Shown in pieces: positions 22,722 through 64,000 of a stretch of 64,000 nt of DNA. Source of the stretch: Blasia pusilla (lineage: Eukaryota). The DNA lies in assembly GCA_050084515.1 (NCBI GenBank), contig CM114271.1, positions 38,998,001 to 39,062,000 of the forward strand. The letters are read 5' to 3'. A program made the position numbers and the translations under genes. The notes below the pieces were generated by a model. It was not told the DNA's origin. It searched no databases and saw only the letters and a list, made by a program, of their open reading frames with translations. Every line of letters starts with the position of its first letter. The stretch's first letter is position 1.

Positions 22722-22730
22722 CTCCCCCTC

Positions 22731-27409: not shown

Positions 27410-27703
27410 TGTGGAAAACTGCTAAACAAGCATAACTCGTTGAAAACGGTTCTCACACACACACACCACCATGGAGAACAAAATTTGCAATGAGAGAATG
27501 AGTGGAAGTTGGTCCTCTTCTCAATTATATAGGGTATGTACAAGCAACCCTAACCCTATCCTTAACCATAGTCTCGAGTTAGCCTAACTATGATTAACTA
27601 ACCCTAGTTAAGATAATCGTGCTTAACTGACTAACCAAGATTAAGCTTCCCTACTTATGAGTTCAAGTGTCTCATAAGCTTGACTGTAACTCAATCTTCA
27701 ATA
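27410..27703 (-). repeat. Copia 5' LTR (294 bp)
   Basis: Direct repeat of 22420-22721, with ~20 substitutions (mostly transitions) and an 8-bp indel by manual alignment. Confidence 0.93.
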
Positions 27704-34631: not shown

Positions 34632-34678
<47 letters not shown>

Positions 34679-39383: not shown

Positions 39384-40592
39384 GAACCTGCTGTTGTTGC
39401 ACCTGCTGTTGTGCCTGCTGCTGTTGTTGCACCTGGCGCTGCTGCATCTGTTGCTGCAGCCTTTGCGTGCTGAGAAGCATATTTGGAGGCATATTTTGGC
39501 CAGCATTAGCGGTAAGGCTATTTTGAGGCATTCCAGATAAACTGGAGAGAGTCGAACCCAGGCCCGTGGAACTTTGCATCACATTTGCAGAGAGGTTGTT
39601 CTGAAGAGATTGGGCCAACACCTGCTGCCGCTGTTGCACCTGCCCAGTTACCTGTCCAGCCATTTGGAGCCCATTGCTCAAACTTTGAGCCTGATTCTGC
39701 AATAGGAGTGCAGACGCTGCAAATTTGTAGCCAGTCATACATTAGAATATGCCATTTGAAAGCACATGCTAAACTATTCTTCTTGTCAAGCAACCAAACT
39801 GCTGACGATCCCAATATCAAAATTTAAGCTTGTATAAATACATTTATGACATGATACCTGAGTCCATTGGTTTGACACCACCTTGAATACCTGCAAGCCT
39901 TGCCTGAATAGAATTACCTGGAGCTATTTGCGCCTTAGTCTCCAAAGAAAGCATTCTCAAAGATATCTTCCTCAAGTAATCTTGCTGTGAAACAAGGATC
40001 CAAGGTACAACACAATCAGCTTCCCACTAACACAAGGTTACGGACAGCAAATGATACATTCAAGCAGACCAGAGTACAGCTACGCACAGATGTCAGACTT
40101 GAACAACATGCACAACGCAAGAAATTTGTGGAATTGACCTGGTCCGTTGCGGCATGAAAAATTTTTTCCTCAAAACGACAGGAAATTTTCAGCAACTCTC
40201 CCACGTTCTCGGGTAAAGTAGGAGGCATGTGCCTCTGAAGGGTGTCCATTCTGCATTACAAAGCACTACAAGTTAGCCGAGGATCCTCAGCAAGGTGTCT
40301 TTCCATCAATACTGCAATTCCAACTGCTCGCATCAAACATTATTGACCTGAAACACTGCACAGGTTTCGCAAATCCTCCTCCCAAATCATCCGAAGAACA
40401 CGGTGCCTTACTACCGAGAGAGACACGGCGCTTCTCAAATAGACATATAACTCATTCTGTATTGCTCCAATACTTCCCTGCTCGGGATTGACCTGAGAAC
40501 AAATCGGTGGAGACTAAAAGCACTCACATGCGCTTGACAATTTTCTGCCGGGAGTCATGAGGCAAACCGTTCCTCCAGTTGTTGTTATCCAT
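31843..40592 (-). CDS. MED15: Mediator of RNA polymerase II transcription subunit 15a; 15 coding exons: 40592-40528, 40250-40139, 39984-39858, 39716-39274, 38992-38861, 38486-38205, 37754-37595, 37080-37000, 36668-36601, 36146-36072, 35827-34118, 33655-33311, 33124-32945, 32796-32705, 32041-31843 (4071 nt, 1356 aa)
   Basis: N-terminal KIX domain (MDNNNWRNGLPHDSRQKIVKRIMDTLQRH...RFEEKIFHAATDQQDYLRKISLRMLSLETK) and a Q-rich middle. It has the plant MED15a signatures DPLERL, SAPGNGSRAAVGEDL, LLIPPSYPESSP and C-terminal WDKCAR...GGGTFSTTIGMWETFVSAS*. All splice phases are consistent. Confidence 0.93.
34622..34750 (-). repeat. Coding CAG/CAA repeat: 43 consecutive Gln in MED15 exon 11
   Basis: 129 nt of CAG/CAA codons between Ala and His. 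Confidence 0.95.
39289..39384 (-). repeat. Coding CAA/CAG repeat: 32 consecutive Gln in MED15 exon 4, including pure (CAA)19(CAG)9
   Basis: Plus strand has (ctg)9 at 39301-39327 and (ttg)19 at 39328-39384. Confidence 0.95.
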
Positions 40593-43729: not shown

Positions 43730-44345
43730 TTATCGTGTGCATACACATTGCTACACAATCCACATCGCTAGTCACATCTACACACCATACAACACCAATC
43801 TTCCCCAACATATGGGTAGATCCACACAAAAATGAAACATACTCACGCATATACACTGGGATCCCACAAAAAAATCAAGAGTAGTAAATATGGCTTACCC
43901 GACCTAAAACTCCACTCATGAATCTACATCGGCATATCGAACCACATCCACCCTCTGCATGAGGGAATTCGGACGCTAGCACCCTAACTCCTACACACCC
44001 ATACACGTCTATGCAAGAGAGGCGCTCCTAAGGCTCAACATGAGAAAGATGGCTTGAGAAAGCCATCTCTCTCACTCTTATACCATTGGGAGCCAAAAGG
44101 CTCTTCCCCCAAAAATAACCCTGCCAACGGTAACCTACGTGCATAGGTTACCGGATGGCCATTGACTCGATCAACATGTCACCTGACGGACTAAAGAAAA
44201 ATAGGAAAATCTTCATAAACGACGTTCCCGACACACCAAACCTGTCGCCAACCTCATTCGACATCTCGGGACGAAGTTACACCCGAACAGCCCGTTGACT
44301 CTCTATGCCTTCGACGCGATAGAACTCTACAGACGTCGAGATAAG
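43730..44345 (-). mobile_element. Distantly related LTR 5'-part fragment
   Basis: ATCGTGTGCATACACATTGCTACACAA (~43732) matches ~19147, and GGTAACCTA is shared with ~19517. Boundaries are approximate. Confidence 0.4.
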
Positions 44346-45169
44346 ATGTGAAAGCATTGAACATGAAGAGGAAGAATAATTTCATACTATCAAAATTTTC
44401 ACTTAGTGCTATTGGTTGTTGAGGTAATATTGTTTAGCTCATTCATTGGAAGCTATTGTCAAAGGTTCAAAATTCTCCTCTCTTGAAGTTTTTTCATTAG
44501 TTCATTTCCTATTCTATATTTTGATGGAAAATTGAATCTAATCTCAATTAAGCTATTGAATATTGGTCGTAAACAGGTTCGAACAATCGGAGTATGTATG
44601 TAGTTCAAATCCCTCCTCCATGCACACTTTGTCTAGTAATGTTAGATGGAGGAAAGAGGAGGCCACAATCCCGCTAAAAAAATTTGATGACTTTCTCAAA
44701 GGGAAGAAAAATAGAAAGAATTTTCACTGTACCTTCAAGATTAATAATTCAAGTGAGAGAACAACATCAAGCACATTTTTCGATATTGATATGCTTCTGG
44801 ACTTTGTGATTTTATAAAAAGGAAAAAAAAAACTAAAAGGTCCCAATAATAAACTCCTTGCTCCTTGGTACATTTGTTTCTTGAGGATGACGATGCTACT
44901 TTTTCAATTGTGATGTGTGTAGAATGACCGTATTTGTGTTTTATTTGATGGATGCATTTGGAACATACAACAAGGATAACAAAATTGATCATAGGATGTT
45001 GGATGAAAGTGCAATTGTAGAAAATGCTCACATTGCATCACATCTATTGAATATATGTCATGAGTTTGTTAAATGTTTGTTGAGATATGGTATTCAACAA
45101 GTAAGATGCAAACCAAGAGGCAGGAGAGGACATAGAAGAGATTGAGAAACAAGGGGGAAAGTAAGGATG

Positions 45170-45456
45170 GATGTTTGGGTCACCTAAAACTAACGCTGAT
45201 GCATACAGACCTTTGCTCCCTAGCTCTATGTGTACAAAGCTAGCATTTGTACTCATGTTGATGAATATTTGTGGTCATCACAATGTCCCCGATGTGTTTG
45301 TTTGGTGGTTATTAGCATTCTTGAAGACAATTGTCTTTTGTGTAGGGAACACGATTCTTGGCATTAAGTATGAGGCAACTAAATTACTGTTGAGTCTTGG
45401 ATTGAATTATACTTGAATTATATACTTGGACTGAATTATACTTGGATCACATTCAT
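45170..45456 (+). mobile_element. CACTA/En-Spm transposase fragment (5' part)
   Basis: LLAFLKTIVFCVGNTILGIKYEATKLLLSLGLNYT resembles the LP.GN.LP...YEAK..L..LGL.Y segment that precedes IHACP in CACTA transposases. Confidence 0.65.
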
Positions 45457-45499
45457 GACATATTAGCACTTGAGTACCATCGGACTCATTCAAGGTTGC

Positions 45500-46370
45500 C
45501 CTCTTCTATATTTGAGGATTTCAGATCTAAATCTTGCAGAGGCCATATTTTTTAGATGGAGAATCATATGAAGCTGAGATTTTGAGGCAATGTGGATTAT
45601 AAAGAGGCGCCTTAGCCCTGAAAATTTTAAGCACAACCGAGTTACAAAGACGAAGTTGTGAGAGATTTTAGTTTCTGCTCTTCTAGATTTGAGGATTTTA
45701 GATCTAAATCTTGCGGAGGCCATATCTTTTGGATGGAGAATCACATGAAGCTGAGATTTTGACGCAATGTAGAGTGTAAAGAGGTGCCCTAGCCTTGCAA
45801 ATTTCAAGCACAACCAAGTCAAAGAGACAAAGTTGTGAGAGATTTGAGTTTTTCCTCTTCTAAATTTGAGGATTTCATATTTGAATCTTGCAGAGGCCAT
45901 ATCTTTCAGATAGAGTATCATATGAAGCTGATATTTTGAGAATATATGGGGTATGAAAATTTGCCATATCCCTGCAAAGTTCAAGCACAATTGAATTACA
46001 AAGATGAAGTTATGAAAGATTTTAGTTTCTAGTTGTTTAGATTTGAGGATTTCAGATCTGAATCTTGCAGAGGCCATATCTTTTAGGTGGAATGTCAGAT
46101 GAAGCTGAGATTTTGAGGAAACATGGAATGTAAAGAGGATCCCTATCCTTGTAAATTGAAAGTATAACCAAGTTACAAAGACGAATTTGTGAGAGATTTG
46201 AGTTTCTGGCCTTCTAGATTTGAGGATTTCAGATCTGAATCTTGAGGAGGCCATATCTTTCAAGTGGAGTATTACATGAAAGTGAAATTTTGAAGAAACG
46301 TGGAGTGTTAAAAGGCGCCCTATTCCTGTGAATTTCAAGTACAACCAACTTCTAGAGCATAAGTTTTGTG
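45500..46370. repeat. Five tandem 177-bp (59-codon) repeats immediately upstream of the LINE ORF
   Basis: GAGGATTT anchor at 45514, 45691, 45868, 46045 and 46222 (period 177). Minus-strand ORF 45490-46410 is open through all copies. Confidence 0.92.
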
Positions 46371-46391
46371 GTGTTGGAGATTCAATAATAC

Positions 46392-49300
46392 TTGATTGGA
46401 GGTCGTGCAATATTGGGATGTTGTGAAATCAACTACATGATGACTACTCAAGACGAAATCTTGAATCTAGTGCAAGTGGTCTGGCATGAATTTAAAGAGC
46501 TTCGACAAACTTCTCAATTGAACCTTGCACATATTCAAATCCGAGAGTTAAAGGCAACGCAAGAGGTTTTGATGAAAATGTTGAAAGATAGCTCTAGTGT
46601 GATGGTGGATCTTTCCAAATTTGTTGCGGATGTTCAAGAGAAGGCATCATCATTAGTGACTACTCCCAATAGTTCACAGATGCAAGGGTTTACTTTGGTG
46701 GGATCGACATGGAACCAAAGAAGGCAACGGGCTGGAAGGGGTTATGGCGGTATTGCTACTTTCATCAGGTCTCAATTTCTAACTTTGATACATCTAGAAG
46801 ATCAAGATATCGTGGGCCAATATCATTGGCTACGTCTTGGTTTGGTTGGGAGATCTTATTATTATTTGGAAGTTTATTATTTTGCACCATTTTCCATGCC
46901 TATCTACTCAACACGCACTTACAATCGAAGTCAATCGTTCCATCGATTTATTAGGGATGTTCTCAAATATCAAAGCAAAAGTGAAGTCTTTCTAGTTGGG
47001 GATTTCAATGCTCGCACACGTACTGCTCAATTTACCCAATTCAGTGATTCCTTGACTTCTCCTCTTCTCAAAGAACATGAGTGATTCCTTGACTTCCCCT
47101 AGAATCTCTTCGATCTTTCTACAAATCCTTTGATAGAGCATTTTTTAACTTTCCGAGCCACTTGTAATTTGAAAGTTCTTAATGGAACCTCTTATTTTCC
47201 CAACTCTCACTCCAATACGTGTTTCTCCTCTACCGGCGCTAGCACCATCGATTATCTTCTGTCCTCGCCCGCTAATAGCTATGTTATCTCTACATTTAAT
47301 ATTCTAGAACCTCAGCCTGAATCAGATCACGCACCTCTTTTATTTACTCTCTCACTATCAAAGGCAATTCCTCTCTCGACATGTCAATTTGTTTTAGCCT
47401 CTCCCAAGTTTCGCTTAGATCTTGGTAAAAAAGATCTTTATATGCTACATTCATAAGAACTCTTCATTCGCATTGTATGGAGCCCAGATCCACACACAGC
47501 AAGTTTGCAACTATCCGAATTGCTAAAAAACACTACATCTAAGTTCTTTTCGCGACATAGGGATAGAAGTGCTAGGAGGTTGCCTTATAATGGGTGGTTT
47601 GACTCTGAATGCAAGCAAGCAAGGGCAAGATCAGTAGATAAATCTTTGGATATCCAAAATCGGCTTATTATGACGAGCCTTTACAAATACTTGGTGAAAT
47701 CTAAGAAAAGAGTTTTCTTGCAGCACAAGCAAGAATCCTTGATAAGGGAGCTGCATGACGATCCCAAATCATTTTGGAGACGGTTAGTAGTACGGTCTTC
47801 AAAACCTACTCTTGATCCCAAGTCTTTGATATCTTTTGCCAAAAAGCTCTATTTCTTTCCCAATGCTACATATATGACACGTTGTGAAGGAATACCTAGC
47901 TTATTCTCTGAAGCAGAGATGATGATTCAACTAAGAAGATTAGCAAATGGTAAATGTGAGGATGTGAATCGTCTTTCTATTGAACTTTTCAAGTGGGGAG
48001 GAGATTCTATTGGACCAATCCTCACCAAAGTATTGGGCGATGCTATTATCTATGGTTTTCCTTCAACCTGGTTGCTACGAGAGATTGTTTTTATTCACAA
48101 ATCAGGAAGGAAGGACTTTGTGACAAACTATCGCACTATCATGGTGGGTAGTATTTTTGCCAAGCTGTTTGGGAAAATTGTGGAGTCAAAGTTGAGCGCA
48201 TGGACAGAGTCTTTCCAAAAGAGAGCATAGGTCCAAGCTGGTTTTTGCCCAACATACAACACCATCGACCATATCTTGACCTTGTGTGTTTTATGGGATA
48301 AATCTAAGGAAATGGGAAAGCTTTGTTTTGCGGTTTCATCGATTTCAAAAAAGCTTTTGATACCGTACCTTGTAAGCTCTTTTGGGATAGGCTGCAAGCC
48401 ATCGGAAAACCACCAAATCCCCTAGCAGCCGTGGTCACTTTATACCATTCCGTTTGGGCCAAGATCAAAGGTTCACAAACTCAAGAGTTGTTGAGTACCA
48501 CCCGGGTCATTCAAGGTTGCCCTCTCTCCCCTACTCTATTTGGAGTTTTCATAGATGAAATCGAAAAGTGGTTGGAGGAATATGATAGTGAAGGTGTCAA
48601 GCTTGGAGACTTTGTCATCAAAGCTCTATTATATGCAAATGATATCATATGACTTGCACGTGATGGCATTAGTTTACAAAAACATCACGACACTTTGGCA
48701 AGGTTTTGTACCCAAAATCAGATGGAGGTTAATATGGAGAAGTCTAAAGTCATTATAGTGGATACTATATCCAAGTTCTCGTTCTTTTACAAAGGTCTAC
48801 AATTAGAACAACTGAAGAGTTACAAATATCTAGGCATTGATTTCTCTCATGACTATAGTTGGGCACTTTGCGTGCAAAAGAAAATAGAAGTTGGTTACAA
48901 AGCTCTATATTCATTTTTAAATCGGTGTAGAAGAGCTCCATCTTGTGTCTTGGGGTCTTAGGAAGTTCTTATTTAGGAGCTTAGTGTTGTCAGTGGTCTT
49001 ATATGGGATCCAATTTTGGGGCCCTAATTGTAAGAAGACAGGTTGGGAGCGCGTGGAGAGGGTGCAAAAGATATTTCTACAAGAAGAATTGGCTGTAAGA
49101 AACCAAACTCCTTATGCTCTTCTTCTTGCGAAAATATGTTGTCTTCCTCTAGAGGCTGAAGCTCTTTACTTCACCATCACTTATATAGCAAGGGTAAGAT
49201 CTCTTCATGTTTCTCGCCTCCCTCCTCAAGCTTTGCAAGCCACACGTTCTATAGGATGGATGGCAGATGTGGTGACTTGGTCTTCAAAGTGGAATATGGC

Positions 49301-49765
49301 GGAACGCGATTGGGACTTGAAACCGATGGCACTCCGCAAGCATCTACATAAGTAATTTCTCAACATTATTTGGAGGAGCCTGGGCACAAAAATGGAGTTT
49401 TATCAACTTCATGTTAATCCTATGCTTGTATATTGTGAACAAGGATACCTACTTGCGTGGATCTCCACGTTCTTATATCATATTATCGCACGACATAGAA
49501 TTGGGTCTCATAGGCTAGGAATTGAGGAAGGACGATGGTTTAATATTGATAGAAGTGCATGAATTTGTAGGTTAAGTGACGGAGAAAATATTGAGGATGA
49601 AGATCATGTGTGTGTTACATGTCCAAGGTATGAAGAGATAAGACTAGCTCGTAAAATATATGTAGAGAATTTGTATACTTTACTACAACTAGTGCCTTAT
49701 GATTTAGGTTGTTATATTAGGGTTGTCATTATTCATCGCTCAAGTGCACTAGGCAGTAGCTAGGA
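46392..49765 (+). mobile_element. LINE (APE endonuclease + RT) non-LTR retrotransposon, disrupted
   Basis: GGIATFIR, VFLVGDFNART, TIDYLL and ESDHAPL (endonuclease); NYRTIMV, FIDFKKAFDTV, QGCPLSPTLF, LLYANDI and YKYLGI (RT); C-terminal GSHRLGIEEGRW...ICRL...IEDEDHVCVTCPRY. Several stops and frameshifts. Confidence 0.92.
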
Positions 49766-49869
49766 TAAGATCTTTAGGATCTTTTTCCGGGAGAGTGAAT
49801 GAATGACTTGTAATGTGTTTTTTAGCCTTTTGACCCTTTGGGTCCCACGGGCTTGATATATTTAACATT

Positions 49870-50205
49870 TATATGCATTCATGCATACCCCCATGGTCAT
49901 CTTCTTTTCAGAGGTGAGAAAGCAAATCGATTGAGTCTCCCAATATGTGGACAACACAAGTATGGAAATGTGGCCACCCAGCCTACAAAGGTACTTCGCC
50001 ATTTTGAAATCATTCCTAGATTTAAACGGATGTATAGTAGTTGGAATATAAGAGTGGGCCTCTCAACCGACGGGGTCAATCCGTTCGGGGACAAGAACAA
50101 TATCTTTTCTTGTTGGCATATAACCTGCTCAATTATAACCTAACTCCCTAATTGACTACAAAGAAGCTTTTGTGTTATTGGTTTAAACTTGCTTATCCCA
50201 AAACC
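49870..50205 (+). mobile_element. CACTA/En-Spm transposase fragment (continuation, Tnp2-like)
   Basis: CIHAYP...LPICGQHKY...PTKVLRHFEIIPRFKRMY..NIRVGLSTDGVNPF...SCW matches the IHACP..CP.C..KVLR.FP..PRL.R..N.RLGL.TDG.NPF CACTA motifs. Confidence 0.8.
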
Positions 50206-51686
50206 ATATTCTACTCTCTATCAAGCGCAGCTCAATATTCGTAGCTTGAGGTGTCCTTCATTCTTTTAGAAGGTGCTCTGGCAAGCATTTGGACTTCATT
50301 TTCTGCATGCACAAGTGAGTGCATACCTCTCACCAAAAGAACCAACACACATACAACCTCTTGCACCTCATTGAACTCCCAATTATAATTGGCCGTATTA
50401 ATATTATTGTTGAACCCAACCATGTAATTCCCTCTTGAGTCTTCAAGGTACTTCCCATCTCTCTTGTCATCAAGCAAGATCATGATCATAAGCATAAAAT
50501 GATGAACCCATCCATCTCGAGATTCCTTTTATATAGAATGGAAGACAACTGCCCATTGGCGACTCTAGATAGTCCAATTTTGAATCTCTTGCAACTCCAA
50601 ATTAAGACCAAGAGTCGCCAAGTACAAGTCTTAGTAGTTGCCATCTATCGTGAATTTGCACGTTACCACAATTTTAATTGTAGAATGGTTGTCCAAACTT
50701 GCAAAGTTGCATCAAGATGCACTGGATTCATGCAACATGAACCCACAAATTGACAATTGCAATGGAGTTGCAAAGAAGCCTCTCTTGGAAAATATGGAGC
50801 TACAATGGAGTTGCATCGGATACCTCTATCATGAGTAGTCAGTGCAAATTACTACATATATTACACATGTAGATTCCAATAACAACCTTGACACACTTAC
50901 TAAGAACAAGGAATCTTTTCTTTTTTGGATTTTGCGAGAAGAAAAGTTGAAGATGGACTTGTTGTCACATGAAGACCATAGTCCTTACAACAAAGAGGAT
51001 GACGGAAGAGGGGAAGAACCCCACGATACACGAAGTGGACCAATTCCCTTGAAGATAAACTAGAAGGTGATCTTCGTGTTCATCATTGAAAATGAATTAA
51101 ATGCGCACTTGGAAAACTCCGTCGACCTAGATATACTCAAGGTAGAGTTGAAGTACCTCAAGTGGCTAGATTGTGCAATTGGTGATTTTTCAAGGAAAGT
51201 GGAAGAAGGATTGGGCCATGTTTAATGGCCTTGCAAGTTATAAAGAGCTCCCAACAAAGAAGAGGAAGTAACTGAGCAAGCTATTCATCAAGCTCAAAGT
51301 CGCAGAGTTGATAAAGGAAATGAAGATTCATTATGGAGATGTAGAGCACAGGTCTTAGAAAAGAGATAAGATACTACAAGCCCAAAATGAAATATCCCCA
51401 CCAATGTAGTCAAAATGACCAAGGGTTCATATGTCGCCAAACTTTGGAAGTATGGGCCTATACCCACAACAACATTATCAACCATCATCTTCTCCGTTGC
51501 ACAAGGAGGAAGGAGGGATTCTACCATGACGAGTGCCATGAGGCCAACACCAACATGATGGATTGTCAAGAAGTCTTAGAGGCCTACTATCTTCTTTCGA
51601 TGGAGAGAAAAGAAATCGGGAAACCAAAGAGGAGATACATGATACAAATGAAAATGAAGGTTGAGTCAAATTGGAGGGGGGGGAGA

Positions 51687-51690
<4 letters not shown>

Positions 51691-51766
<76 letters not shown>
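51691..51766 (+). repeat. (GA)38 microsatellite
   Basis: 76 nt of uninterrupted GA. Confidence 0.97.
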
Positions 51767-51768
<2 letters not shown>

Positions 51769-52130
51769 AATGAGGACGTAAAAGGTGTTTTGAATGACTT
51801 CAATGTAGGTCGTAATATGAGTTTTGAAAGGCTTGAAGAGAATTTTGATTGCCTTGTACATAATGGCACTATTTCTAGAATCTTTCGTAGGAAGAGTGCT
51901 TCGGACAATAGCAAGGTTATTCCTCGTCTATCAAAATTGGAGAGTTTTATAAAGAATTTCCAACGCATATTTGATTTGGAAGCCAAATTTAATTTTGAAG
52001 GGAATGCACCAACAATTGTGTGAGAAGCATGAGATACTAAAGAGAGAGATGGAGAGTGTTGTTTGTGTAATCTCTTGAATGTTGATCTCATGTGATATGG
52101 AAACTTACATTCAATAAGACACACTTATAT

Positions 52131-52803
52131 TGTTGATGTGCATCCAAACACACTACACTAGTCTTGGTTTGAGTCCAACCTTACGTTTCCTTTAGTTCAT
52201 AGGTTGGGTATCCATCAAGCTAACCAATTCCTAACCCCTCACTTCCCAACATATGCAAGTCTTTCTAGAGTTGGGACAAACTTCCTAGATAGTCAAGACA
52301 CGTAAAACGACGCTTATGAACCTAGCGGTTCTAATTATCCAAGAAATCTCGAATGAGTCTCTAACCGCAAGCCAAGATATGAGTCATGGATTGACGTCCA
52401 AGGTTGACCTCCATAATTTTCTCCCTTGGACTTGGCTTGGTATCCACATCCCAAAGCCAACCTCTTGATCCATTCTGTGCCTTGGGTTTGCCTACGGCTT
52501 CCCAAAGTAGAGTTCAATTTCCAAGCACCCCTCATATATAGTTCTAGAGATCTCCACCCCTTCTCCACCTTTGGGAAAGACCTCTTGGACCGCTCCTTTT
52601 GGCCCTCAGCCCAACTACCAAGTTGGTAGTTTGGCGACAGTTTCTCAATATCTATTCATGCGCTTGTCTAGCTCTTTGGTGTGTTAGTATTTTCTTTGCA
52701 TAAGCTTTCCAACGTCACCTTATTCATCCCAAATGCATCTTAGGTCTTGTTTGTATGACCTTAAACACCGCAAAATCCCCAAAGGCTTATTCAATTCCAA
52801 GTC
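52131..52803 (-). mobile_element. LTR fragment of the 17640-19797 family
   Basis: Colinear with ~17720-18385 (GCATCCAAACACACT, CTTCCTAGATAGTC, CCCAAAGCCAAC, GCATAAGCTTTCCAACG). Confidence 0.75.
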
Positions 52804-55375
52804 TATTGGATTCTCAACATCCACTTCTCTGAGCACCATTAATCTCATTAGCCCCCTTGTATGAGGAGAAGCCTAGATTGATGGTTCGATTTAGACGTCG
52901 GAGGAATCATAATAATATGACGGAGATGGTTTATGGAGTAGCGTTACTAGGACTATCTAACCCTATATTGCATCAAGTTTAGGGCACCCTGATGCAAAAA
53001 AAATTATATTAATAGATTCGAAGAAAAATAGGTGAAAAATCCTAGTTTCTCGAGTAGTGAAATAGTTGAGAGCCGCAACGGTAGCGCATTCTCGTATGTC
53101 GAGTTATCTCCATGTTCAAGTTCCATCAAATCTCTTCTGTGAGTGCACAGATGGACTAGGCCACTTTGTATCTCCAAGTTTTTTAAGAGATTTCAATGAT
53201 TTCGTCATTTTCTGTTTTCTCACACACTTGCCGCTTAACTCTCTTGCGACTTCAACTCCTCTCAAATCTTGCTTAACTTTTAATCCCGGTTTATTGGGTC
53301 ATGATCATCATCAATTAAAATTTCTAACCTTGCTTGCATCTTACATCTGGTGTCTCCTTTAAGAGAATCTTCTTATGAGCATCTATCCTAGTGTGAGCCT
53401 GCTAAAGTTCTGATGCTTCTTATCGATGCACGTTTGGCTATGAGGATCGCAACAGAAAGGATCGAAAACGATTGAATTTCCATAGATGAACTACATAGAA
53501 GAAAAATAACCATAATAGCATACCAAATGAAGCAATAGAGAAAGGCATAGAACTGCAAGAGACACCATGACATAACTCACACCTAAGAGAACTCTACAGA
53601 AGGGTTGTCTCGTAAAAAATGTTGATATGATCTTATTTCAACCTATCGAGCAATTGTTTCCGCATGGTCTACGTGCATCATGGGACAATGTAGTGGATCC
53701 AAATGCTACCAACTATGCTTCTATGATATTGGAACCAACATCTCTCAATCCGAGTAGACAAGAGAAAGATATGCCTAATTGGATGAAGGCAAACGCTGTA
53801 GTTGAAGGAGGATTCCTCACGCCAAACAATTGGCCAAAATGCATGATTTTCTTCAACCCAATTATTGTGGAAGATTGATACGTGGCGGACCCATATAAAG
53901 TTTGTTATTAACATCCATACTATCTTCAAAAGGCCATGTTACTATCACACAAGAGTCCAACTTATAGATAATCTTGGTCAAGAAGACTTTATTATCTTTT
54001 GGCATATCTTTCCGCTCGCTCGATAGCAATGCACCAACTTTGTATAATAAGCGATCCCAAGAGAAAGAGAATTTCACTTTTTGTTTGGGACATTGTAGCC
54101 CATGATCAGATTATAGCCTTGAAGTGAACATAGATGGGGTCATTCACATAGAAATCCCACGTCTTTAAACAACTGATCCAAAAATATGATCGTAGCTCAT
54201 CTACTTCATTAAAATTTATGATTTAAGAGATTTTATTCACGGAATTGCTATAGATCTCCAAAATTGGGAGGTAGAAAACTTTTTCTTTATGCAGAGGTAA
54301 ATTCTATAAGAAGTCCAAGATGCCTTGGACACAACTTGTCAACTTCTTCTAAAGGATCATAAAAATCTATTTATGGATAATCTTGTCTTGAAAAAACTTG
54401 AATTGATCTTGCCATCTTTCTTATGGGAAGATATTCCTCAAAGGATAGAAGGGGGATATCCACAAACATACCATTACCCTCTTCGAATGCAGGAGGAACT
54501 CATTGAATTCTATGAGATCCAACACTTGCCGCATCCAACATCACTGTCAGTCCTATCCACGATCACACCTGATGTACACTCGCCATCACTCAGGCTCGAA
54601 TATCACCTAACAATGGGAAGTTCTCCAAAATGTAGGCCGAAGAACATCGTTGGGTAGTCTGCAAGTATCAAAGAACTCGCAACATCTCCCAAAATATGGC
54701 TGACTTCGGGTCCTGCAAACCAAGTCCCTGACCCATCAAAGAATGACCCTGACATGGCCACCTTGCCAACACCAAGTGTATCACACCAACCCTATCTAGA
54801 TCAAGTGCCCCCAACAACGAAATGTCGATCATCAATACATGCTAATATCCCCTAACTACAGACATTGGCAATAACTCATGATACTTGTCTCCAAACCTTG
54901 AGTTTGAATAGAAGTACACCAAATCCCTAGCATGTTGATTGGTCAATTTCTTGTGAGAAACATAATGTGAGGAAATCACTGAAATATCTTATAAATCTTG
55001 GAGATACAAAGTGGCCTAGTCCGTCCGTGCACTTTGATGTCAAGTTATCTACATGTTCGATCATGTTACATTGAACCTGAACATGTAGATAACTCGACAT
55101 ACGAGAATGCGCTACCGCCGCTGCTCCTAACTATTTCACTACTGGAAAAATAGGGCTTTTTACTTATTTTTCTTTATTTCTATTTAGGGTCATTTTGCAT
55201 CATGGTGCCCCGCATCCTAATGAAATATAGGGTTAGATAATCCTAGTAACTATGCTCCATAAACCACCTGTGTCATATTACTATGACTCCCTCGACGTCT
55301 AAGTCGGAACCATCAATCTAGGCTTCTTCTCATATAAGGGGGCCGATGAGAGAAGTGGATGTTGAGACTCCAACA
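52804..55375. mobile_element. Unclassified element bounded by ~420-bp diverged inverted repeats (52804-~53225 and ~54950-55375)
   Basis: The left arm T(A)TTGGATTCTCAACATCCACTTCTC...GAAGCCTAGATTGATGGTTC...GGTAGCGCATTCTCGTATGTCGAGTTATCT...GGACTAGGCCACTTTGTATCTCCAAG is mirrored at the right, ending GAGAAGTGGATGTTGAGACTCCAACA. Confidence 0.75.
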
Positions 55376-55379
55376 TTTA

Positions 55380-57330
55380 TTCCTCTAGCTATTGTGGATA
55401 AAACCATAATTGTACCAATTTCTCTCTGTTGAAGAAGAAGAGTCCACTTGTATTAATTTGGACTTAGCCAAAGAGCGCAATGTTGAGGCATCTTGAATGT
55501 GCATGCTTCACCAATCAAAGGGGTTGAGTGAATTGACAATTGGCCTATCAAACTTTTCTAGATGGTTTTGATGGTTCATAATTTTGCCCAACTCTCGCAA
55601 AAAAGTAGCTACATAAGAATTAGCCTTGGCGATATACATGCGATGCACCCCCTTTGCATAAAGTTTCAAATGTTATTTGAGATTTTTCATGCACTCAAAA
55701 TTTGAAGTAATGTCTTGAATACAATTAAGAAGATTGTAAGGGCAAGGATGTAACCTACTACGTGTAATTGATTGTGGATGAGCGCCCAATCAATAATTTC
55801 CATAGTTATAGATAATATCACAATAAAACCGCAATGCCTTCCATCCCTACCAGGCCATGGAGTTAAAGGAAAAGAACGCGTCTATTCCATTATGCCAAAT
55901 ACACGGTGATAATTCCGGCATATCATTGGTTAAGACTATCATACTCTCTCAAGAGAATAATAGTTGGTAGAGCCGCACCAAACAACCTTCTGTCCAAAAA
56001 TTATGATTTCCCATAATAGTCTCAATCTCTTGTGCCTTCTCCCTTTGCCTTGTATTTCTCCCATTGAAATACTCCCTAAAAGAATTTATGGAAACCATAG
56101 CATGGAATGCCTCCCTCAATTCTAAGACACATCCCAAAATTATAAAGTTTTTTATAAAGCGTATGCTATCAGGGCACAATAGCGGTCTCTTCGCTAGGTT
56201 TATTTCCATGAATTTGGCCATTACCCAAGTTTTTGTCTTGATAAATACTACCATCTCACAAGCTTGCGCAAAAATTCTATCCATCCAAGGTCACTCATTC
56301 CATTCTTTGCATACCAGATCAAGAGAATGTGATACATATCCATCCCAAAATATATGAGGAACCTTTGCTTCAATAAGTTTCTCTGCTGCTCGCTCATTGC
56401 TAGTTTTGTTTGTCACAAGTTGCAATACATTCTTTAGAGCTTTGCATAAGATCGTCCTCTTTATGTGACTTTCCAACCATTCAGTCATCTGGGATTTTCC
56501 CTTCGTGTCTACAAACTTGATCATGACCTCACATTGTGGACATGAAACCATGATGTTCACTAAAAATTCGCTCCTCATATTGGTCCAAGCATCCGTGAGG
56601 ATTGTGGCTCCCAAACCCAAATTATGCAATATAACATCAACCTTTTCCTTCATCTTCCCCATACGTTTCCCAAGTAAAGTAGTGTGCGACAAATTGTAAT
56701 TAGGACTAGAGTAACCCTGCACCTTTGTTGTTGCCAACATTGCTTGCTTGAAAGAATTTTGTCGTGCTACATCGAATGGTAGTCCACATTCGTAGAAATA
56801 TTTTGCCCACATGTTATTTGTAACTTCTATTCCTTGAAGGTTGAAAGAATCCCTCTAATCACCTTGCTTCTTTTCGATGGTACTAGTTGCTTGACACAGC
56901 CGTACTATTCCTAAGCTTCTGTCAAAATTTCCACTCGGTATCATGTTTGCAACCCCAACAACATAAGACACCAAACAAACAATATTTCTTGTCTCTTGCG
57001 AACCCAATTGGAATGGCATTGTCTACTCCGCTTCACTCGAGGGTCTTCCTTCCCTTCTATGTCAATTTCCCATAAGTATCCTATTTCGGAGATCTCGTTG
57101 CATATTAGAAGGGACCTTCATACACAATTTTGCATGTTGGGTATCCAGAATCCAATCCTTTGTCTTTTGTCTCTTGTGTGAAATGCTCCATCATCCATGT
57201 GCTAGCTATAATATGCTTTCATTGAATAAGAATAATACTTATATTGCCATTTTCTTGATGTTCCACCTTCCACTTATACATCTTCCTAATATTCTTTCAA
57301 AATTTATTGGAGTTCTTTGGCTTTGGTCAT
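55380..57330 (-). mobile_element. hAT-superfamily transposase remnant (BED finger-like, DUF659, dimerization region)
   Basis: WAKYFYECGLPFDVARQNSFKQAM...ATILTDAWTNMRSEFLVNIMVSCP...VLQLVTN...IFWDGYVSHSLDL (DUF659-type), and SSSSTERNWYNYGFIH..RNK at ~55380-55445 (dimerization domain). Confidence 0.85.
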
Positions 57331-58127
57331 GACTATAAGTAGATACTATCCCTACCCAAGCAATATTTGGATAATTTGCAACAATTTTATAGGCTCAATA
57401 ATTAGATATTTCAACTTGTGAAATATATGCAAATTATATCATATGTTATTCGTGAATGCTCTAATAGCAACCTTGGAACACTCACTATGAACAAGAAAGG
57501 TTCATATGCTAACCTGGATAACCAAGATACCTTAAATTATCAAGGTTATCCAATGGCAAAACATATCCTCACTTATCAAGTTCACCGATCTATGGAAAAA
57601 TAAATTTAGATAAAAGAGTAGAGAGAGGAGTGAGATTGTGAGAGAATACTAAAAATTAAATGAGTAAGTTGATAGAGGGGCGGATGGAAGGAAGGGACTT
57701 AATCCTTAATTTTTTTTCTCATCTATCCCCACGTACTATTAATGCCTAAAAAAACTCCACTAATAAACATGCCACAAATCTTATTTGGTTCTTCTAATCC
57801 CAATCATTATTCAACTCTCCTAACTTCTTGATCCACTTCACTTGCAACTAACCTATTTCGTAACATAATTACCCTATTATCTTATACTCTAACCTTCCCC
57901 TTTTCTCTCCATCTGTGAAGCCTAGGCCCGGACCCAACCCACATTGCTTGGAAGGGAGCCCGCATAATCCACACCTTGGGCAAGGGCAACCCCCATGGCT
58001 CGCACGCGGGTGGCCAATGTGTGGGCAAGCCAATATGTGGGCAGCCCGGGTTGGGCCCACTCACCTGGCCCGCACTAGGCCAAAGGAAGCTCACCTCAGG
58101 CCCATAGCATGTCCGTGTCAGGGCGTG

Positions 58128-60163
58128 TGTCACGTCTTTTAGGATAGATTGGTGAGATCTAATAGACCGCCTTCGTGAGTAATGGAGGACACGCTCAGTA
58201 GGTTGCGAATGACCTGTTGAGGCCCCGGGAAACCTGAGAGAACCGGTTTCCCCTTCGCTTCGGCTCATTTGGAGCCATATTAAGGAACTTACTATTTTAG
58301 GTAAGTATCATTTTGAGTATATGATCGACTTTCTATTTTTGGTAAGTGGCCCTTGACCTCCTACATCAGGTCAAGAGCCAAGGAGGTGACTTGGGAGAAT
58401 AGGTTACCATGGAGAGAGCTTGGGAGAGGGGAGGGTATACCTCAAGGAGAGAGAGCTTGAGAGCTCATTCTCTCTTTATTGAACCTCTTGGCATGAGGCG
58501 GCGGAGCTATGGTACCTTGCCTTGTGAGTGTAACCCAAGCCTCTCATTAGGAGAGTGGGTTTGGTTTGACATGAGAGAGAGTGCACACCTTTGAGAGCTA
58601 TGGTGTGAGATGGTGGAGAGAAAGATTGGATTCTACTTTACAAAGAGAGAATGAGAGAGTGAGAGAGCTTCATGGGGGAGCTTACTGGTCACTCGCTGTT
58701 TTTTCAGGTTGGGGACCCTGTTCCCCGTTCAGCGGCTCATGGGAGTGCTCACCGGAGCAAGGGCTGCTTTCATTATTCTTTGCATTTGCTGATTTTTCGT
58801 GTGGAAGAGTGGCGCGCGGAAGCGCTGCCCAATTGTTGATAGGGATTGAGTATGGAGGCGGGTTGCCCCATGCTGATGCTCTCGGGAGCACCATGTAACT
58901 TGCTGATTTGTATTTATACAGATGTTACATTTTCGTTGGGAGAAATCAGCGCGGGAGCGCTGCCGGATTTTGTGTAGGAGAAAGAGAAATTAGGCTTTAC
59001 GACAGTCCCCGTCTGTTTTTACTGAAATGTTCGATTCTAAATATTTTTTGATGCTGGCGTAGATCGTGAAGCTGTGCACGCTGTGCAACAAATAGTGCGC
59101 AATTTGGAGTCGTGACCAAAAAGTTATGGTCAATCTTGTAAAGGTGCCATTGCTAGGCGATTTTTAGGGTTAAATTGTGCAAACCCTAAATCAGCCGCCA
59201 CACCGGCGACGGCCGTCGCCATCATAGTCACCGTCACCGTCAATGGTCAACGGTCACCATCACCGGTCAACCGTCACCGTCAACAATTAACCGTCACCGT
59301 CGACGGTCGGCCATCACCATCAGCGGTCGATCGTCACTGTCAACGGTCCACCGTCCATTGTCCACCCTTTGGGTGCCATTGCCGCCATTATGGAGTGGAG
59401 GGTCTTCCACGACGTTCGTTGATTCCTTGACTTGCGTCGCCACCACTTACTTTGTTTTGGCCGCCACCGTCATCGCAGTTTCTTCATCAACCAGTGATGG
59501 CAGATGACCTCCGATTATGGTGTTTGAGTTTTGATTTCATGTTGCTATGTTGTGATTGGTAGCCGCTTGACGACGATCGAGTATCGCGGTCGACGCCCGT
59601 AAGCCGCGCAGCGCCGCCAATTGCGCGCCGTGCCCTCGTGGTCGCGCCTTTCGCACCGTCTCGATCGCGGAGCCGCACGTCATTGTGGAGCGAGTGTGGG
59701 TTTATTGTTGATTGAGGAGGGTATGCGCGGAGTGCCGCATCTCACCATCGAGGGCCGTGCCGTTCGTGAGTCGCGTGCGTGCGCTTCGCAACGCCCACCG
59801 TTCCGACCGGGGGACCGCTTTGTCTATCGAGGAGTTTTGAGCAGCCGTCGATGGGAGGAGAATGACTTGCTGATTGGAGGAGTTGTCTCCACGATCGAGT
59901 TGGGGTCAGATTTGCGATTCTTTGAGGAGCGACATCGACATGTGTTAGTTACCCATTGGTCCTTTACCTTGCGTGTGAGGGATTCAGGATTTGGTTAGTT
60001 TATTTGGGGATATTGGGTGTGTGGATGCTTTGAGAGCATCATTTATGTATGTGGTTTAGGGGACATAGACCTGTGTGGGATGTCCGGAGTTGAGGATAGG
60101 TTGTCGATGAGATGATAGCCTGGTCGATTAGCCGCACCACGCCGCGTGTTGCCGCACGTTACA
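58128..60163 (+). repeat. Putative 5' LTR of the DNMT-bearing element (3' boundary inferred at ...CGTTACA)
   Basis: The first ~520 bp are highly similar to the reverse complement of 19272-19797. The candidate CA end is followed by CGTCTCGGGGA, a possible degenerate tRNA-Asp-type PBS. Confidence 0.4.
59225..59360 (+). repeat. Short degenerate ~21-bp tandem repeats (ACCGTCACCGTCAACGGTCA-like), about 6-7 copies
   Basis: Recurrent (A/G)CC(G/A)TCACC(G/A)TC(A/G)ACGGTC units. Confidence 0.7.
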
Positions 60164-60619
60164 CGTCTCGGGGAGAGAGAGTGTAGATCGAGTGCCGCAT
60201 GTTTGGGATGAGTGATTGAGGGATTCCTCACGAGGTTCAGAGTGATCGGGTGAGAGGGGCACGAGGGTCATCACGGAGTCTGTTCGGGACTTTGAGAGGC
60301 GAGGTGATGAACCCGAGAGTAGCTTGAGAGGTTTTACGCGGAGTGGCGCGAGGTTTCGAGGGTCTCCACGTGAGGGACTACCTCGACCTCCTTCTGTGTC
60401 ATCGTCAGACGAAGGGGAGGGTATAGAGGAGTTTGTGAGCACATCGCCATACATTGTGAGTGGTCCTACCGGTTGGGCGTGATTGAGATGGACGACCAGG
60501 GTAGAGGACCGCATAGGTTTTCAGTGCGATGAGGGCACGATTGAGTTGCACGATTTTATAGCGAGTTTAGGAGTTGGTGCGACTCGAGGGCCAAGAACTC
60601 TAGAGAGTTCAACCCGTTC

Positions 60620-62720
60620 TGACATGGAACGGTATGTTCCGGCATTTAGAGGGGCTCCCATGGGCGATTACCATGAGTTCTCTCGAGAGATATGCATGTG
60701 AGATCGAGGCGTGGAGGCTCTACTATGACCCACATTATGTGTCATGGACGGAGCGTTCCTAGATGAGGAGGAGGAGTCGGGAGAGGCTCACGCCTCTTCC
60801 ACTAGTGACGTTTTAGGAGGGGTCACTCGCACGGGAGCGATTACCGTCTAGTCGGGTTTGTCCCGAGTTCAACCTGTGGTTGAGTTCTTTCTTTGAGAGT
60901 TGAGGGCGAGCTACCGGGGGTACGGACGGAGAAGTTGCGGAGCATCCTCGACTTCAGGCGCCGGGTGAGAGTTTGCGTGAGGCTTACACTCGCTTGCCGG
61001 TTGATCAACGTCACTCGGGAGTGCAGAGGCTCGAGCTATCAATCATGGTACGCGATGCTGGGCCGGACCACCGTGGACACGGGTGCGGAGGGGGTGCTTT
61101 TATGAACACCTCCCCTACGTTGAGAGATGTTTTTAGGGAGAACATTGAGCCCAACATGGCGGAGGAGGCGTAGCCACCATGGGTTTGGCGAGAGCAATCA
61201 CGATTGTCTGCACCCCATTGGAACGTGGACTCGAGATAGGTCATTGTGGCACCACGAGCTTAGGAGGATACCGGAGGCCGTGCCCACGAGACCTGCGCCT
61301 TTCGGCGGCGTGACCCTCTATTACTTGTTGGTCATATGGTGGAGCCCATCATGGGGTGATTGCACTCGTGAGGGTCATGGGCGTGTGCCTCGGCATGGAG
61401 GAGGAGATGGTCTTTGCACCAAGAGGTTATCAGTGTGACTATTGTCGAGGTATGGTCATACACGCGCCGGGTATTTCAGTTTACATCTGAGTTACGTCCG
61501 GACCGAGGGCGGAGAGGGCACCAGAGCGATAGCCGGTCCATGTGGGCCTAGAGATCGTGCATCCCAGGTGGTCTGTTGGGGAACGAGGAGGCTGGAGTTT
61601 CCGCCAGTGGTGGTGGAGCGCCCGTGGAGGAGGTAGAGTACCACCACCTAGACGCGTGAGGAGGCGCCGGACGTGCGGGATGGATCGCTCGATACAACAA
61701 CTCTGAGGAGCAGATTGTCGCTTGGCATTGAGGTTACCCGATGCCGGATACGTAACATCGACATCATATGGAGCAGCCAGAGATCTGGAGAATCCTGGAT
61801 GGATGTGCGGGGCTGCCCAGATGGAGGCCGCCGCAATTGTGACGCGTGGAGCGGCCGCAGAGTTGGATCCACAGAGGAAGCGGAGAAAGCGCTAGGCTTC
61901 TCGGTCTTTCACGTTGTCGAAGCGATGAGGACCCCATTGATGGGTCCTCATCAAAGTTCTGGAGAGTTGGTGATGTTGTTGGTGTGCAGGCATGAAGGGC
62001 GATGGGAGAAGCGAGTGCGACGACTCCTATTGTTGATGTTCAGGAGGGGCATGTGTCGAGCACGTTGTTGGGGGAGGCCATAGTTGTGTACCGCACTCCT
62101 TTATTTTCTGCTTCCGATGTTATGACGTTGGGGGGTACGCCCGCCGAGGCTTTTCGGCTGGCCGCTTCACTATGTGAGCGGAGTTGGAGTTCTGCATCAC
62201 GTTGAGGTGATTTGAGGAGGAGGTGATGGACCTGCCCTTGGGGGGCGGATGCCGGGCCGTCCATGTCGATTCATGGGAGGGTGCGGCTGCTAGGATGGCG
62301 GAGATGCCCGCTAGACCCGCGATAGAGCGTGCCATGGCTTCTCCTGGTGTTGTGTTGTTGGATAACCAAAGAGAGGTCTTCGTTGGTGAGTCCCGGAGGT
62401 AGAGCTTTTAGTCGGTAGCGTCTTGTTGATTAGGGGGCAGCGTCATTGAGGATTGGGCTTGCGAGCCGATGTGGAGCGTTGTCCATTCGGATCGGACATC
62501 CTTGGGTGGAGCAAGTACCACACAATATATCACCCGCCAGAGGAGTGGGTGGTGATTCACCCGGGATATCCTGAGATGAGTCCGTGAGTGCGCGCCAAAG
62601 CGATAGTGGATCGATCAAGAGTCCCTCACGGCGTCTTGGTTGGTGGAGCGATATTGTACCCGGCGGGGTTTTCCTGGATTCTTGGGAGGAGTTCCCCTGA
62701 GACCAGGATGGCGTCGGTGA
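60620..62720 (+). pseudogene. Retroelement gag + zinc knuckles + aspartic protease, heavily frameshifted
   Basis: Frame-hopping reading gives ..GVRTEKLRSILDFRRR..ESLREAYTRL.RLINVTR..WYAML..TSPTLRDVF (gag-like), C-W-S-Y-G..HHG.DC (~61325) and CDYCR..GHT..F.LH.E (~61434). A VL(L)D(S)GA-like motif lies at ~62420 and VLVGGAILYPAGF..DSWEE at ~62632. Confidence 0.55.
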
Positions 62721-63039
62721 TGGGCGCCTTAGCTCATTACCCGTTCGATTCACAGTGCGATGATCGAGCAGCGGCCATGAGAGATAGCGACCTTAGCGAG
62801 CATTTAGTAGTGCCATCACTTGGCCTAGTGATTTGATTGAGGACATGTCCATCTGAGGATACTCCGTTCTTGACATTTCTATGGAGAGAGTGTTATGGTA
62901 TTGCATCATTCCGTGGAGAGAGGTCTGTGGGACTCGAGAGCTTCAACGATTGGCGGATGAGCACGAGGCGTGGAGCGGCGTTTGCACCAGGCGTGACCGA
63001 GGAACCGAGGTAGCGAGGGAAGTGCTGATGACACCCTTG

Positions 63040-63990
63040 GATACCACACCCATTGTGTGGTGTACCGGAGAGGGTATTCGAGTGTTAGATCTCTTTGGAG
63101 GGATTAGCACCAGGTTAGCTTCTTTGTTTTGAGTGCGAGTACAACAATACTGTATGTGGAGAGTGATGATGTTGCGGCGTGTCTCACTACGACATGTGGC
63201 GCAATTATGCCTCGTTTTCCCGACTTATTATCTGCGCGTCAGCGATCTGAGTACGAGTTCCCCTCTTGAGGATATTTTGTTGTTGGGGGCGCAGGACTTA
63301 GAGCGGGTAGGGACCATTGATTTGGTCATTGCGGTTGGCCATGTCGGGGCCAATCGAGTGCTCGATGAGGACGGGTTGGTGACACTCGGTCAGTTGTTTT
63401 GGGAGATGTTGAGGGTCTTCGGGATTTGAGAGCACGGTCTCGTTCTCGGCCTACATTCTAGAGAATGTGCCGATCTTAGGAGACTCAGTCACGGGTGGTG
63501 AGTGCTCATCAGTGCGTGCTGGATCGGCCAAGTGTTCTTGGATGTGGCGAGTGTAGGTTCTAGAGCCCATCGCTCGCGTCTATGGTGGACCAACTTGGTG
63601 CCCCATGCGGTGTTATGGAGGGCGTATCGAGTGGAGCGCCCCTCCCATTTGTTAGTGGATTCCATTTTGGATCCAGGTTGTCGATCACGAGCGGTGAGGC
63701 ACGATGATCGACCACCGTTGACGTGGAGGTAGGTAGGTGCGGGCGGCCTTGCCCAGTTGTGAGTTTTCCGCTTCTGTGCATACAAGGAGGCCGGTCCTGG
63801 CTTGGTTTGGGATGACCAGGTTCAGCGGTTGGTGGAGCCAACGCCCGACGAGAGAGAGCGAGCAATGGGATTTCCCACAGGAGTGACGGCAGTACCATCA
63901 GTGTGAGAGGCATCACGACGCCATGTCTTGGGTCAGCGATGGACTGAAGCGCTTGACATGGATCCTCACTTGGGAGTGGTGAGCGGCGTC
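63040..63990 (+). pseudogene. C5-cytosine DNA methyltransferase domain within the retroelement pol region (frameshifted as assembled)
   Basis: Motif I IRVLDLFGGIST (63076), motif IV IDLVIA-GWPCRG (63316-63350), LFWEMLRV, motif VI YILENVP (~63452), motif VIII DVASVGSRAHRSRLWWTN (63541), motif IX DERERAMGFPTG (~63847), and motif X RRHVLGQ(A)MD (~63917), in canonical order and spacing. Confidence 0.88.
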
Positions 63991-64000
63991 ATATGAGATC

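Follow-up and report, generated by a model that had tools for sequence, protein, structure and literature searches.

Does a retrotransposon of a land plant carry its own cytosine-5 (C5) DNA methyltransferase (DNMT)? The question arises at the end of a 64,000-nucleotide stretch of the Blasia pusilla genome (contig CM114271.1, positions 38,998,001 to 39,062,000 of the forward strand; hereafter the window), where an earlier note, made from the letters alone, had read methyltransferase motifs behind a retrotransposon-like coding region. Our analysis indicates that positions 58128-64000 of the plus strand are very probably the 5′ part of a decayed Ty3/Gypsy-type long terminal repeat (LTR) retrotransposon copy in which a DNMT3-type domain follows the protease. 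Gypsy elements with a DNMT3 are already known as a kind; what is added here is their occurrence in a bryophyte land plant.

A decayed DNMT3-type domain at the end of the window

The six C5-methyltransferase motifs that the earlier note had listed are all present in order on one strand, at 63085-63944 (+), spread over three reading frames (Table 1). Their order, I, IV, VI, VIII, IX, X, is the canonical, non-rearranged one. The last of them had been given as LGQAMD and needs correcting: the motif X region is there, but the string is a composite across a frameshift, with VLGQ in one frame and LGSAMD in the other. Ungapped matches to a Marchantia polymorpha protein (P0165) reveal at least seven frame changes within 63028-63944, in addition to several stops. 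No uninterrupted coding sequence runs through the domain, and with these stops and frame changes the gene is therefore broken. We conclude that the window copy is a heavily frameshifted pseudogene that cannot make an enzyme; in itself it is dead and without functional consequence. The absence of introns, also claimed before, agrees with a tblastn alignment in which residues 502-1188 of P0165 match 62014-63963 without an intron-sized gap.

A phmmer search of 1.84 billion representative proteins, with the frame-1 reading of 62857-63999 as query (X at stops), returned 351 matches at E<=1e-3, of which 124 reach E<=1e-10 and 2 reach E<=1e-30 (best E 4.5e-34). Judged by this comparison, the DNMT similarity of the region is far beyond chance. 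A Pfam scan covered 34 of the 150 matches listed and found PF00145 in 20 of those 34. Gypsy-type reverse transcriptase (RT) or integrase domains occur in 16 of the scanned matches, and two more have a retroviral-type protease or a zinc knuckle. A look-up in the ESM Atlas gave only “DNA methylase, Streptophyta” and phage methylase look-alikes.

Among known structures, the best match of P0165 in a PDB sequence search is DNMT3A (E 1.7e-8), followed by 3B and 3C. These three make up 25 of the 27 matches, the other two being HaeIII (1e-3) and a plant DRM (2.6e-3). By this comparison the family domain is closest to the DNMT3 type. Motifs I, IV, VI, VIII, IX and X align with those of animal DNMT3A/3B/3C (AHRARLWWTNL against AHRARYFWGNL), although at ~36 bits only, and unlike these enzymes the family lacks a PWWP or ADD domain, its methyltransferase being one part of a retrotransposon polyprotein. 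It also differs from DRM, whose motif order is rearranged. In a motif table of the relatives, 9 of the 12 Marchantia rows retain GWPCQG and 11 retain ILENVP; all six motifs are intact in Calypogeia, as are the five present in the Sphagnum row. Motif IV reads GWECQG instead of GWPCQG in P0060, P0149 (Closterium), P0006 and P0095 (metagenomic), with Pro replaced by Glu and Cys kept.

The domain lies in a Gypsy-type coding region behind a presumed LTR

Upstream of the domain, the gag-like, zinc-knuckle and protease-like segments proposed from the letters are backed by colinear tblastn matches to Marchantia proteins (Table 1). The M. polymorpha proteins P0163-P0166 (1248-1333 aa) align colinearly with 60500-63963 (residue 8 to about residue 1188), and proteins and window have the same order: gag-like region, CCHC knuckle, aspartic protease, DNMT3-like domain. 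The colinear remnants thus include both a Gag with CCHC knuckle and a D(S/T)G aspartic protease, as in Ty3/Gypsy elements. Base 64000 falls about 90 residues short of the end of the Marchantia proteins. Only Marchantia proteins matched this region; the upstream parts of P0006, P0060 and P0095 gave no match to 58.6-62.9 kb at E<=1e-3. No Pfam match was found in the leader that separates the coding region from the repeat in front of it.

That repeat, here called A, starts with TG and does have a counterpart elsewhere in the window, as had been claimed. The window copy shows one such repeat, at its 5′ side, and the window stops at 64000. Unmatched letters just before 58128 occur in 4691 DNA reads, so a repeated unit starts there. 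The counterpart lies on the minus strand downstream of a Gypsy integrase remnant and belongs to a truncated copy ending at 19272; a Copia insertion begins at 22414 and appears to interrupt this copy. We conclude that elements sharing repeat A have left two partial copies in the window, a 5′ part and, separately, a 3′ end. In about half of the family reads (consensus agreement 0.54), repeat A is preceded by a further motif of 25-30 nt, B, which in the minus-strand copy instead follows A at a distance of about 100 nt. Sequences compared as possible split direct repeats, B1 and B2, around the minus-copy LTR have 61% identity only, over a short alignment. This placement may reflect split direct repeats (A1-internal-B1-A2-B2), as in the KnitGypsy-Dnmt3 element of Klebsormidium nitens, or a nested insertion. 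The B motif occurs once more at 43732-43756 (-), without repeat A.

Much of the decay may belong to part of the family only. At 60029, 60685, 60789, 61167 and 62492, 67-85% of DNA reads differ from the window copy by a 1-2-nt indel, and many frameshifts of this copy are therefore not common to most of the family. A minority of DNA reads carries them, and they may mark a frameshifted subfamily. There is also a strand skew (G>C, T>A). One-sided deamination was rejected as its cause, since C>T (675) and G>A (734), T>C (644) and A>G (559) occur at broadly similar frequencies among the differences between family reads and this copy; the skew thus looks like coding-strand composition.

Table 1. Features of the 64-kb window: the DNMT-carrying element, the second element with repeat A, and other features
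Feature	Positions	Strand	Basis and remarks
Repeat A, presumed 5′ LTR, 521 bp, starts with TG	58128-58648	+	90.3% identical to 19797-19272 (-) over 528 columns
Leader between LTR and ORF start (~1.85 kb)	58649-60480	+	Short imperfect repeat at 59230-59355; read depth as rest of interior
Gag-like N-terminal region, frameshifted	60500-61167	+	tblastn, P0163-P0166 residues 8-255, 29-37% identity, E ~1e-10
Zinc-knuckle (CCHC) remnant, CDYCRGMVIH...	61434-61475	+	Place matches CCHC at P0165 residue 334; degenerate, missed by Pfam
Protease region and linker	62014-62900	+	tblastn to P0165 residues 502-800
Protease active-site remnant LVD*GA, stop inside	62422-62439	+	Marchantia: VLLDSGAQP, DSG at P0165 residue 638
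DNMT3-like C5 methyltransferase domain remnant	62980-63963	+	Motifs I, IV, VI, VIII, IX, X; three frames, stops
LDLFGGI	63085-63105	+	Motif search of frame translations
GWPC	63333-63344	+	
ILENV	63455-63469	+	
RAHRSRLWWTN	63562-63594	+	
ERERAMGFP	63850-63876	+	
VLGQ	63925-63936	+	Then (S)AMD to 63944 in another frame
Second copy of repeat A, presumed 3′ LTR of truncated element	19272-19797	-	Downstream of integrase remnant
Gypsy integrase remnant, many stops	19798-20950	-	Integrase_H2C2 E 8.4e-4; SH3_Tf2-1 E 3.3e-7; tblastn, P0072 and P0167 integrase parts
B motif	19146-19170	-	Exact match to loose-end consensus before 58128; ~100 nt after repeat A of minus copy
Separate DNMT fragment, motifs IV to VI, three stops	54503-54952	-	tblastx; ORF 54668-54841
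Tandem array, 207-bp unit, 10.1 copies, 84% matches	700-2796		
Copia element, LTRs 22414-22721 / 27402-27703 (90% identical)	22414-27703	-	Long ORFs: gag, Pol_BBD, SH3_retrovirus, RVT_2
Likely host exon, KIX_2 domain	40019-40255	-	Pfam, E 6e-8
LINE remnant (Exo_endo_phos, RVT_1)	46389-49352	+	Pfam
CACTA transposase remnant (Transposase_21)	49826-50140	+	Pfam
hAT-type DUF659 remnant	56294-56854	-	Pfam
ORF, open reading frame; LINE, long interspersed nuclear element.

A family with members in liverworts and peat moss

The best named relatives of the domain are Calypogeia fissa CAM6104272.1 and M. polymorpha OAE24016.1 and OAE22373.1. A word-indexed search with OAE22373.1 led to four Marchantia proteins (1248-1333 aa) and one Sphagnum fallax protein. 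Public databases hold at least 17 annotated Marchantia proteins of this kind (15 cluster representatives and two more), labelled hypothetical, together with Calypogeia, Sphagnum and Closterium proteins, and the DNMT-carrying family is thus less exotic than the earlier note assumed. The bryophyte proteins (among them Mp_4g09160, Mp_8g17980, MARPO_0091s0058, Mp_2g26090 and BDL97_09G086500) share architecture and clade with the window element, are colinear with 60500-63963 and have DNMT domains 69-71% identical to it over aligned columns. Their frames are open and their motifs largely intact, whereas the window copy is frameshifted and full of stops.

These relatives also tell where the domain sits in a full polyprotein. 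In Marchantia MARPO_0091s0058 (P0170), DNA_methylase (460-529) is followed by RVT_1 (833-919) and RNase H (974-1098), and Mp_2g26090 (P0178) has the same order of DNMT, RT and RNase H. Together with the colinear gag-CCHC-protease-DNMT proteins, they bear out the predicted position of the DNMT between protease and RT. In the metagenomic proteins P0152 and P0159, zf-CCHC, (protease), DNMT, RT, RNase H and integrase follow one another in a single protein. Across 147 near-complete DNMT domains in 234 proteins, the DNMT precedes the RT in 12 and follows RT and RNase H in 57.

A second architecture, in the order RT, RNase H, DNMT, integrase and PHD finger (sometimes Tudor), is seen in P0016, P0017, P0024, P0070, P0104, P0195 and others. 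This set is mostly metagenomic, with one named member from the green alga Monoraphidium neglectum. It resembles the window family in having a related DNMT (~40% identity to P0165) inside a Gypsy pol. It differs in the position of the DNMT, which comes after RNase H and not before RT, in its C-terminal PHD finger and in forming its own clade (Shimodaira-Hasegawa-like approximate likelihood ratio test, SH-aLRT, 99).

We placed the domain in two trees, one built by FastTree from 149 DNMT domains, with the window copies read with X at every break, and one by IQ-TREE from 49 rows hand-picked from the 149; neither contains a host DNMT3 outgroup. In the FastTree tree, both window copies (the domain and a separate fragment on the minus strand, described below) fall into a 20-row clade with support 100, together with 12 Marchantia rows, Calypogeia, Sphagnum and four unnamed rows. 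The same bryophyte clade, with 16 rows, has SH-aLRT 100 in IQ-TREE. The highest identities of the window DNMT are 69% to Calypogeia P0174 (240-243 columns) and 70-71% to Marchantia (106-116 columns). Six Closterium proteins form a separate clade, and K. nitens GAQ93235.1 (P0085; a zinc knuckle, then the DNMT) lies in another. From these sequence comparisons, the Klebsormidium Gypsy-DNMT3 appears as a more distant relative than the Marchantia, Calypogeia and Sphagnum members. Deep nodes are weak (support 89 in FastTree, 51 in IQ-TREE), and in trees of this kind, which have no host DNMT3 outgroup, the DNMT may have been acquired once long ago or several times, as both readings fit.

A likely host gene of the window agrees with a bryophyte setting. 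An exon at 7397-7921 (+) encoding an O-fucosyltransferase N-terminus is closest to Marchantia (58% identity over 95% of the query), the next match being from a lycophyte (3 matches from 399 candidates). We conclude that the host is a bryophyte-like land plant.

The element is repeated and its family is transcribed

Public reads of the same organism were mapped to 44001-64000 at a likeness of 80%; 397,713 of 12.9 million records of the DNA run (X20) found a place there, and the two mate columns were summed per bin. The element interior (58675-64000) has a depth of 2,600-4,400 with no step, about 110-290 times that of the two lowest bins (15 and 23). The two DNMT bins lie within this range at 2,800-3,300. 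Depth is 11,300 in the LTR bin; at base 58432 it is about 14,300, to be compared with 2,400-4,700 in the interior.

Over the interior, RNA depth is 9-36-fold in two runs, with a bias of about 10:1 toward the orientation that common stranded libraries would give for plus-sense RNA. Most of these reads fall below 95% likeness to the window copy (18/266/1296/1641 by likeness class in run X21) and must stem from other copies. Transcription is thus shown for the family, though not necessarily for the 58128-64000 locus.

One element, neighbouring repeats or a host gene

Several observations weigh against reading 58128-64000 as part of a single DNMT-carrying Gypsy element, or limit how far that reading reaches. 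The RT, RNase H, integrase and 3′ LTR of the window copy are not within the window and would lie past 64000; no match to an RT of the family was found anywhere in the window, where the only RTs are those of Copia and LINE elements. Neither a primer-binding site nor a polypurine tract was identified: no obvious primer-binding site follows 58648, with no host tRNA comparison made. The chromodomain-like tail that the minus-copy integrase shows by eye has no Pfam confirmation. Pfam gave no DNA_methylase match on the three plus-strand frames (X at stops) and no relevant domain on the 44 stop-free ORF pieces of 57.5-64 kb. PF00145, the profile named in the earlier note, has no match above the gathering score in these frames and ORF pieces of the window; Marchantia P0165 matches it at 35.6 bits, with a cut-off of 22. 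Additionally, the link between repeat A and the DNMT rests on adjacency, on uniform depth and on a second A copy that stands beside an integrase without a DNMT. The number of copies in the genome is on the order of 100 or more, which is an order of magnitude only, given an uncertain single-copy baseline. Two weak Pfam matches in window pieces, BPD_transp_1_N (E 0.06) and Minor_capsid_2 (E 0.29), were dismissed as noise.

Could two unrelated repeats simply lie side by side, with A the LTR of an ordinary chromovirus-like Gypsy element and the gag-protease-DNMT region part of a different or non-autonomous one? The sole other copy of A in the window does flank an integrase with no DNMT nearby, but that copy is truncated, with the Copia insertion on its far side. 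The 1.85 kb between A and the ORF have no assignment; depth nevertheless holds steady from 58675 to 64000, and no loose end falls in 58650-62700 among the best-supported 24 of more than 16,000. Depth over A is 3-5 times that of the interior, an excess that solo LTRs and the two LTRs of each element explain. Several Marchantia proteins stop about 90 aa past motif X without an RT, whereas in P0170 and P0178 the DNMT is followed by RT and RNase H within one protein. We consider such a juxtaposition very unlikely and retain the single Gypsy element as the preferred reading.

Still less probable, to the point that we give it hardly any weight, is a host DNMT3 gene or processed pseudogene amid transposon debris. 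The domain is DNMT3-like, and non-seed land plants have true DNMT3 genes (PMC12344493). Against a host origin, the same ORF runs upstream into gag-like, knuckle and protease regions colinear with the Marchantia proteins, the DNMT bins have 120-215 times the depth of the lowest bins, and a second DNMT fragment occurs in the same window. The nearest relatives carry RT or integrase; the tree alone, having no host DNMT3 outgroup, is not enough to exclude a host gene. The earlier note had named a single-copy, intron-containing or host-grouping segment as the sign of a chance neighbour; the segment found here is multi-copy, has no intron and groups with transposon-borne DNMTs.

What the domain may do in intact members

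With a single Gypsy element as the preferred reading, an intact member would consist of a 5′ LTR, the 1.85-kb leader and an ORF for the gag-like region, CCHC knuckle, aspartic protease and DNMT3-type domain, with RT, RNase H and integrase expected downstream, for the window copy beyond 64000. The DNMT would be made as part of the polyprotein and presumably released by the element's own protease. Since the family domain keeps the catalytic Pro-Cys, the ENV and the S-adenosylmethionine (AdoMet)-binding motifs, it might carry out de novo cytosine methylation, most plausibly at CG; this preference is suggested by analogy with the SymbioDIRS-Dnmt3 domains of Symbiodinium, which methylate CG de novo in yeast (PMC5890265). 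By that analogy, the family DNMT could methylate newly made copies of the element or the sequence around them de novo, probably at CG, a proposal we regard as quite possible but short of probable. The self-marking function suggested in the earlier note is likewise hypothetical.

Two observations weigh against this mechanism. The transposon DNMT of Klebsormidium had no detectable activity in yeast, a result its authors call inconclusive (PMC5890265). In the window, the CpG observed/expected ratio is 0.88-1.12 in the element interior (58649-64000) and 0.25-0.44 in the two LTR copies; elsewhere the Copia element has 0.49, the LINE 0.56 and the stretch at 28-44 kb 0.43. Such interior values do not suggest that the window copy was heavily methylated at CG over a long time.

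Both observations would also fit a real family whose domain is no DNA methyltransferase in vivo, and is instead a pseudo-enzyme, an RNA methylase or a structural or chromatin-binding module. For the DNMTs of LINEs, methylation of RNA has been proposed (PMC5890265), and GWECQG replaces the Pro-Cys motif in Closterium and some metagenomic relatives. The bryophyte copies, however, keep FGG, PC, ENV, RxR and the C-terminal motifs, and the yeast activity of SymbioDIRS-Dnmt3 shows a transposon-borne DNMT3 at work on DNA. We hold a domain of this other kind to be unlikely, yet serious enough to be kept in mind.

On a wider view, an old streptophyte Gypsy lineage would have carried a catalytically competent DNMT3 from charophytes (Klebsormidium, Closterium) into liverworts and Sphagnum, and would still be transcribed, with at least 100 copies in the present genome. 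We put this forward tentatively and with more doubt than the proposed activity itself.

A second DNMT fragment and other features of the window

When all retrieved relatives were compared with the window by tblastn, their DNMT similarity fell at two sites, the domain described above and the minus-strand fragment at 54503-54952. The fragment is 63% identical to P0165 residues 930-1059 (E 3e-40) and 57% identical to P0018 (E 3e-36). DNA depth over it is about 250-700, and it represents a lower-copy lineage than the 58128-64000 element. Its edge abuts the right arm of a 420-bp inverted repeat pair at 52806-53224 (+) and 54952-55373 (-), 75.6% identical. Depth in the bin of the left arm is about 1,860, so the arms belong to a high-copy repeat, and the fragment may have been captured or interrupted by a high-copy inverted-repeat element.

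The rest of the window holds a Copia element, a tandem array and remnants of other transposons (Table 1). Those of hAT (DUF659) and CACTA (Transposase_21) are of types that we take to be typical of plants. Two long open frames, 34079-35995 (-) with 639 aa and 8802-9965 (+) with 388 aa, have no Pfam match at E<=1e-3; the former overlaps short internal repeats.

Discussion

Within the literature searched, DNMT-carrying retrotransposons have so far been described in dinoflagellates and one charophyte alga; they now extend to land plants. Relatives of the window element occur in at least two liverwort genera, in peat moss and in the window genome itself, with a conserved architecture and, in Marchantia, largely intact catalytic motifs. 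If members are indeed active, DNMT3s encoded by transposons would contribute de novo cytosine methylation in bryophytes that has so far gone unrecognised, and DNMT gene counts and mutant phenotypes in Marchantia and similar models could be confounded. DNMT genes annotated as “hypothetical” in bryophytes may belong to transposons and call for caution. Marchantia offers a tractable model for what a transposon gains from its own predicted de novo methyltransferase.

How far had such elements been traced before? Three retrotransposons with their own DNMT, SymbioLINE-Dnmt, SymbioDIRS-Dnmt3 and KnitGypsy-Dnmt3, were reported by de Mendoza et al. in 2018 (PMC5890265), whose main text, in its accessible parts, makes no mention of Marchantia or other land-plant elements. 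A 2025 paper (PMC12344493) and a 2026 preprint (10.64898/2026.05.21.726589) speak, in the parts available, of transposon DNMT3s “in streptophytes”, citing that study. We found no description of a Gypsy-DNMT3 from a land plant in the literature, where the supplements of PMC5890265 and PMC12344493 may list bryophyte sequences.

The two Symbiodinium elements share with the present family a C5-DNMT within a retrotransposon, of DNMT3 type in the case of SymbioDIRS. As far as their description allows a comparison (PMC5890265), they differ in class, being DIRS (tyrosine-recombinase) or LINE elements, and in an independent acquisition of the domain. The closest known system is KnitGypsy-Dnmt3, an intronless DNMT3 in the Pol of a K. 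nitens Gypsy element that has few copies and DIRS-like repeats (PMC5890265, Fig. 4c legend). The family described here likewise has an intronless, non-rearranged DNMT3-type domain in a Gypsy-type polyprotein and is multi-copy. The K. nitens protein GAQ93235.1, with its zinc knuckle upstream of the DNMT, is itself among our phmmer matches (E 2.6e-12). Unlike KnitGypsy-Dnmt3, the family has a land plant as host, forms a bryophyte clade outside which the K. nitens protein lies, and is present in numbers on the order of 100 or more as against a few; the DIRS-like repeats of the algal element are only hinted at here, by the B motif.

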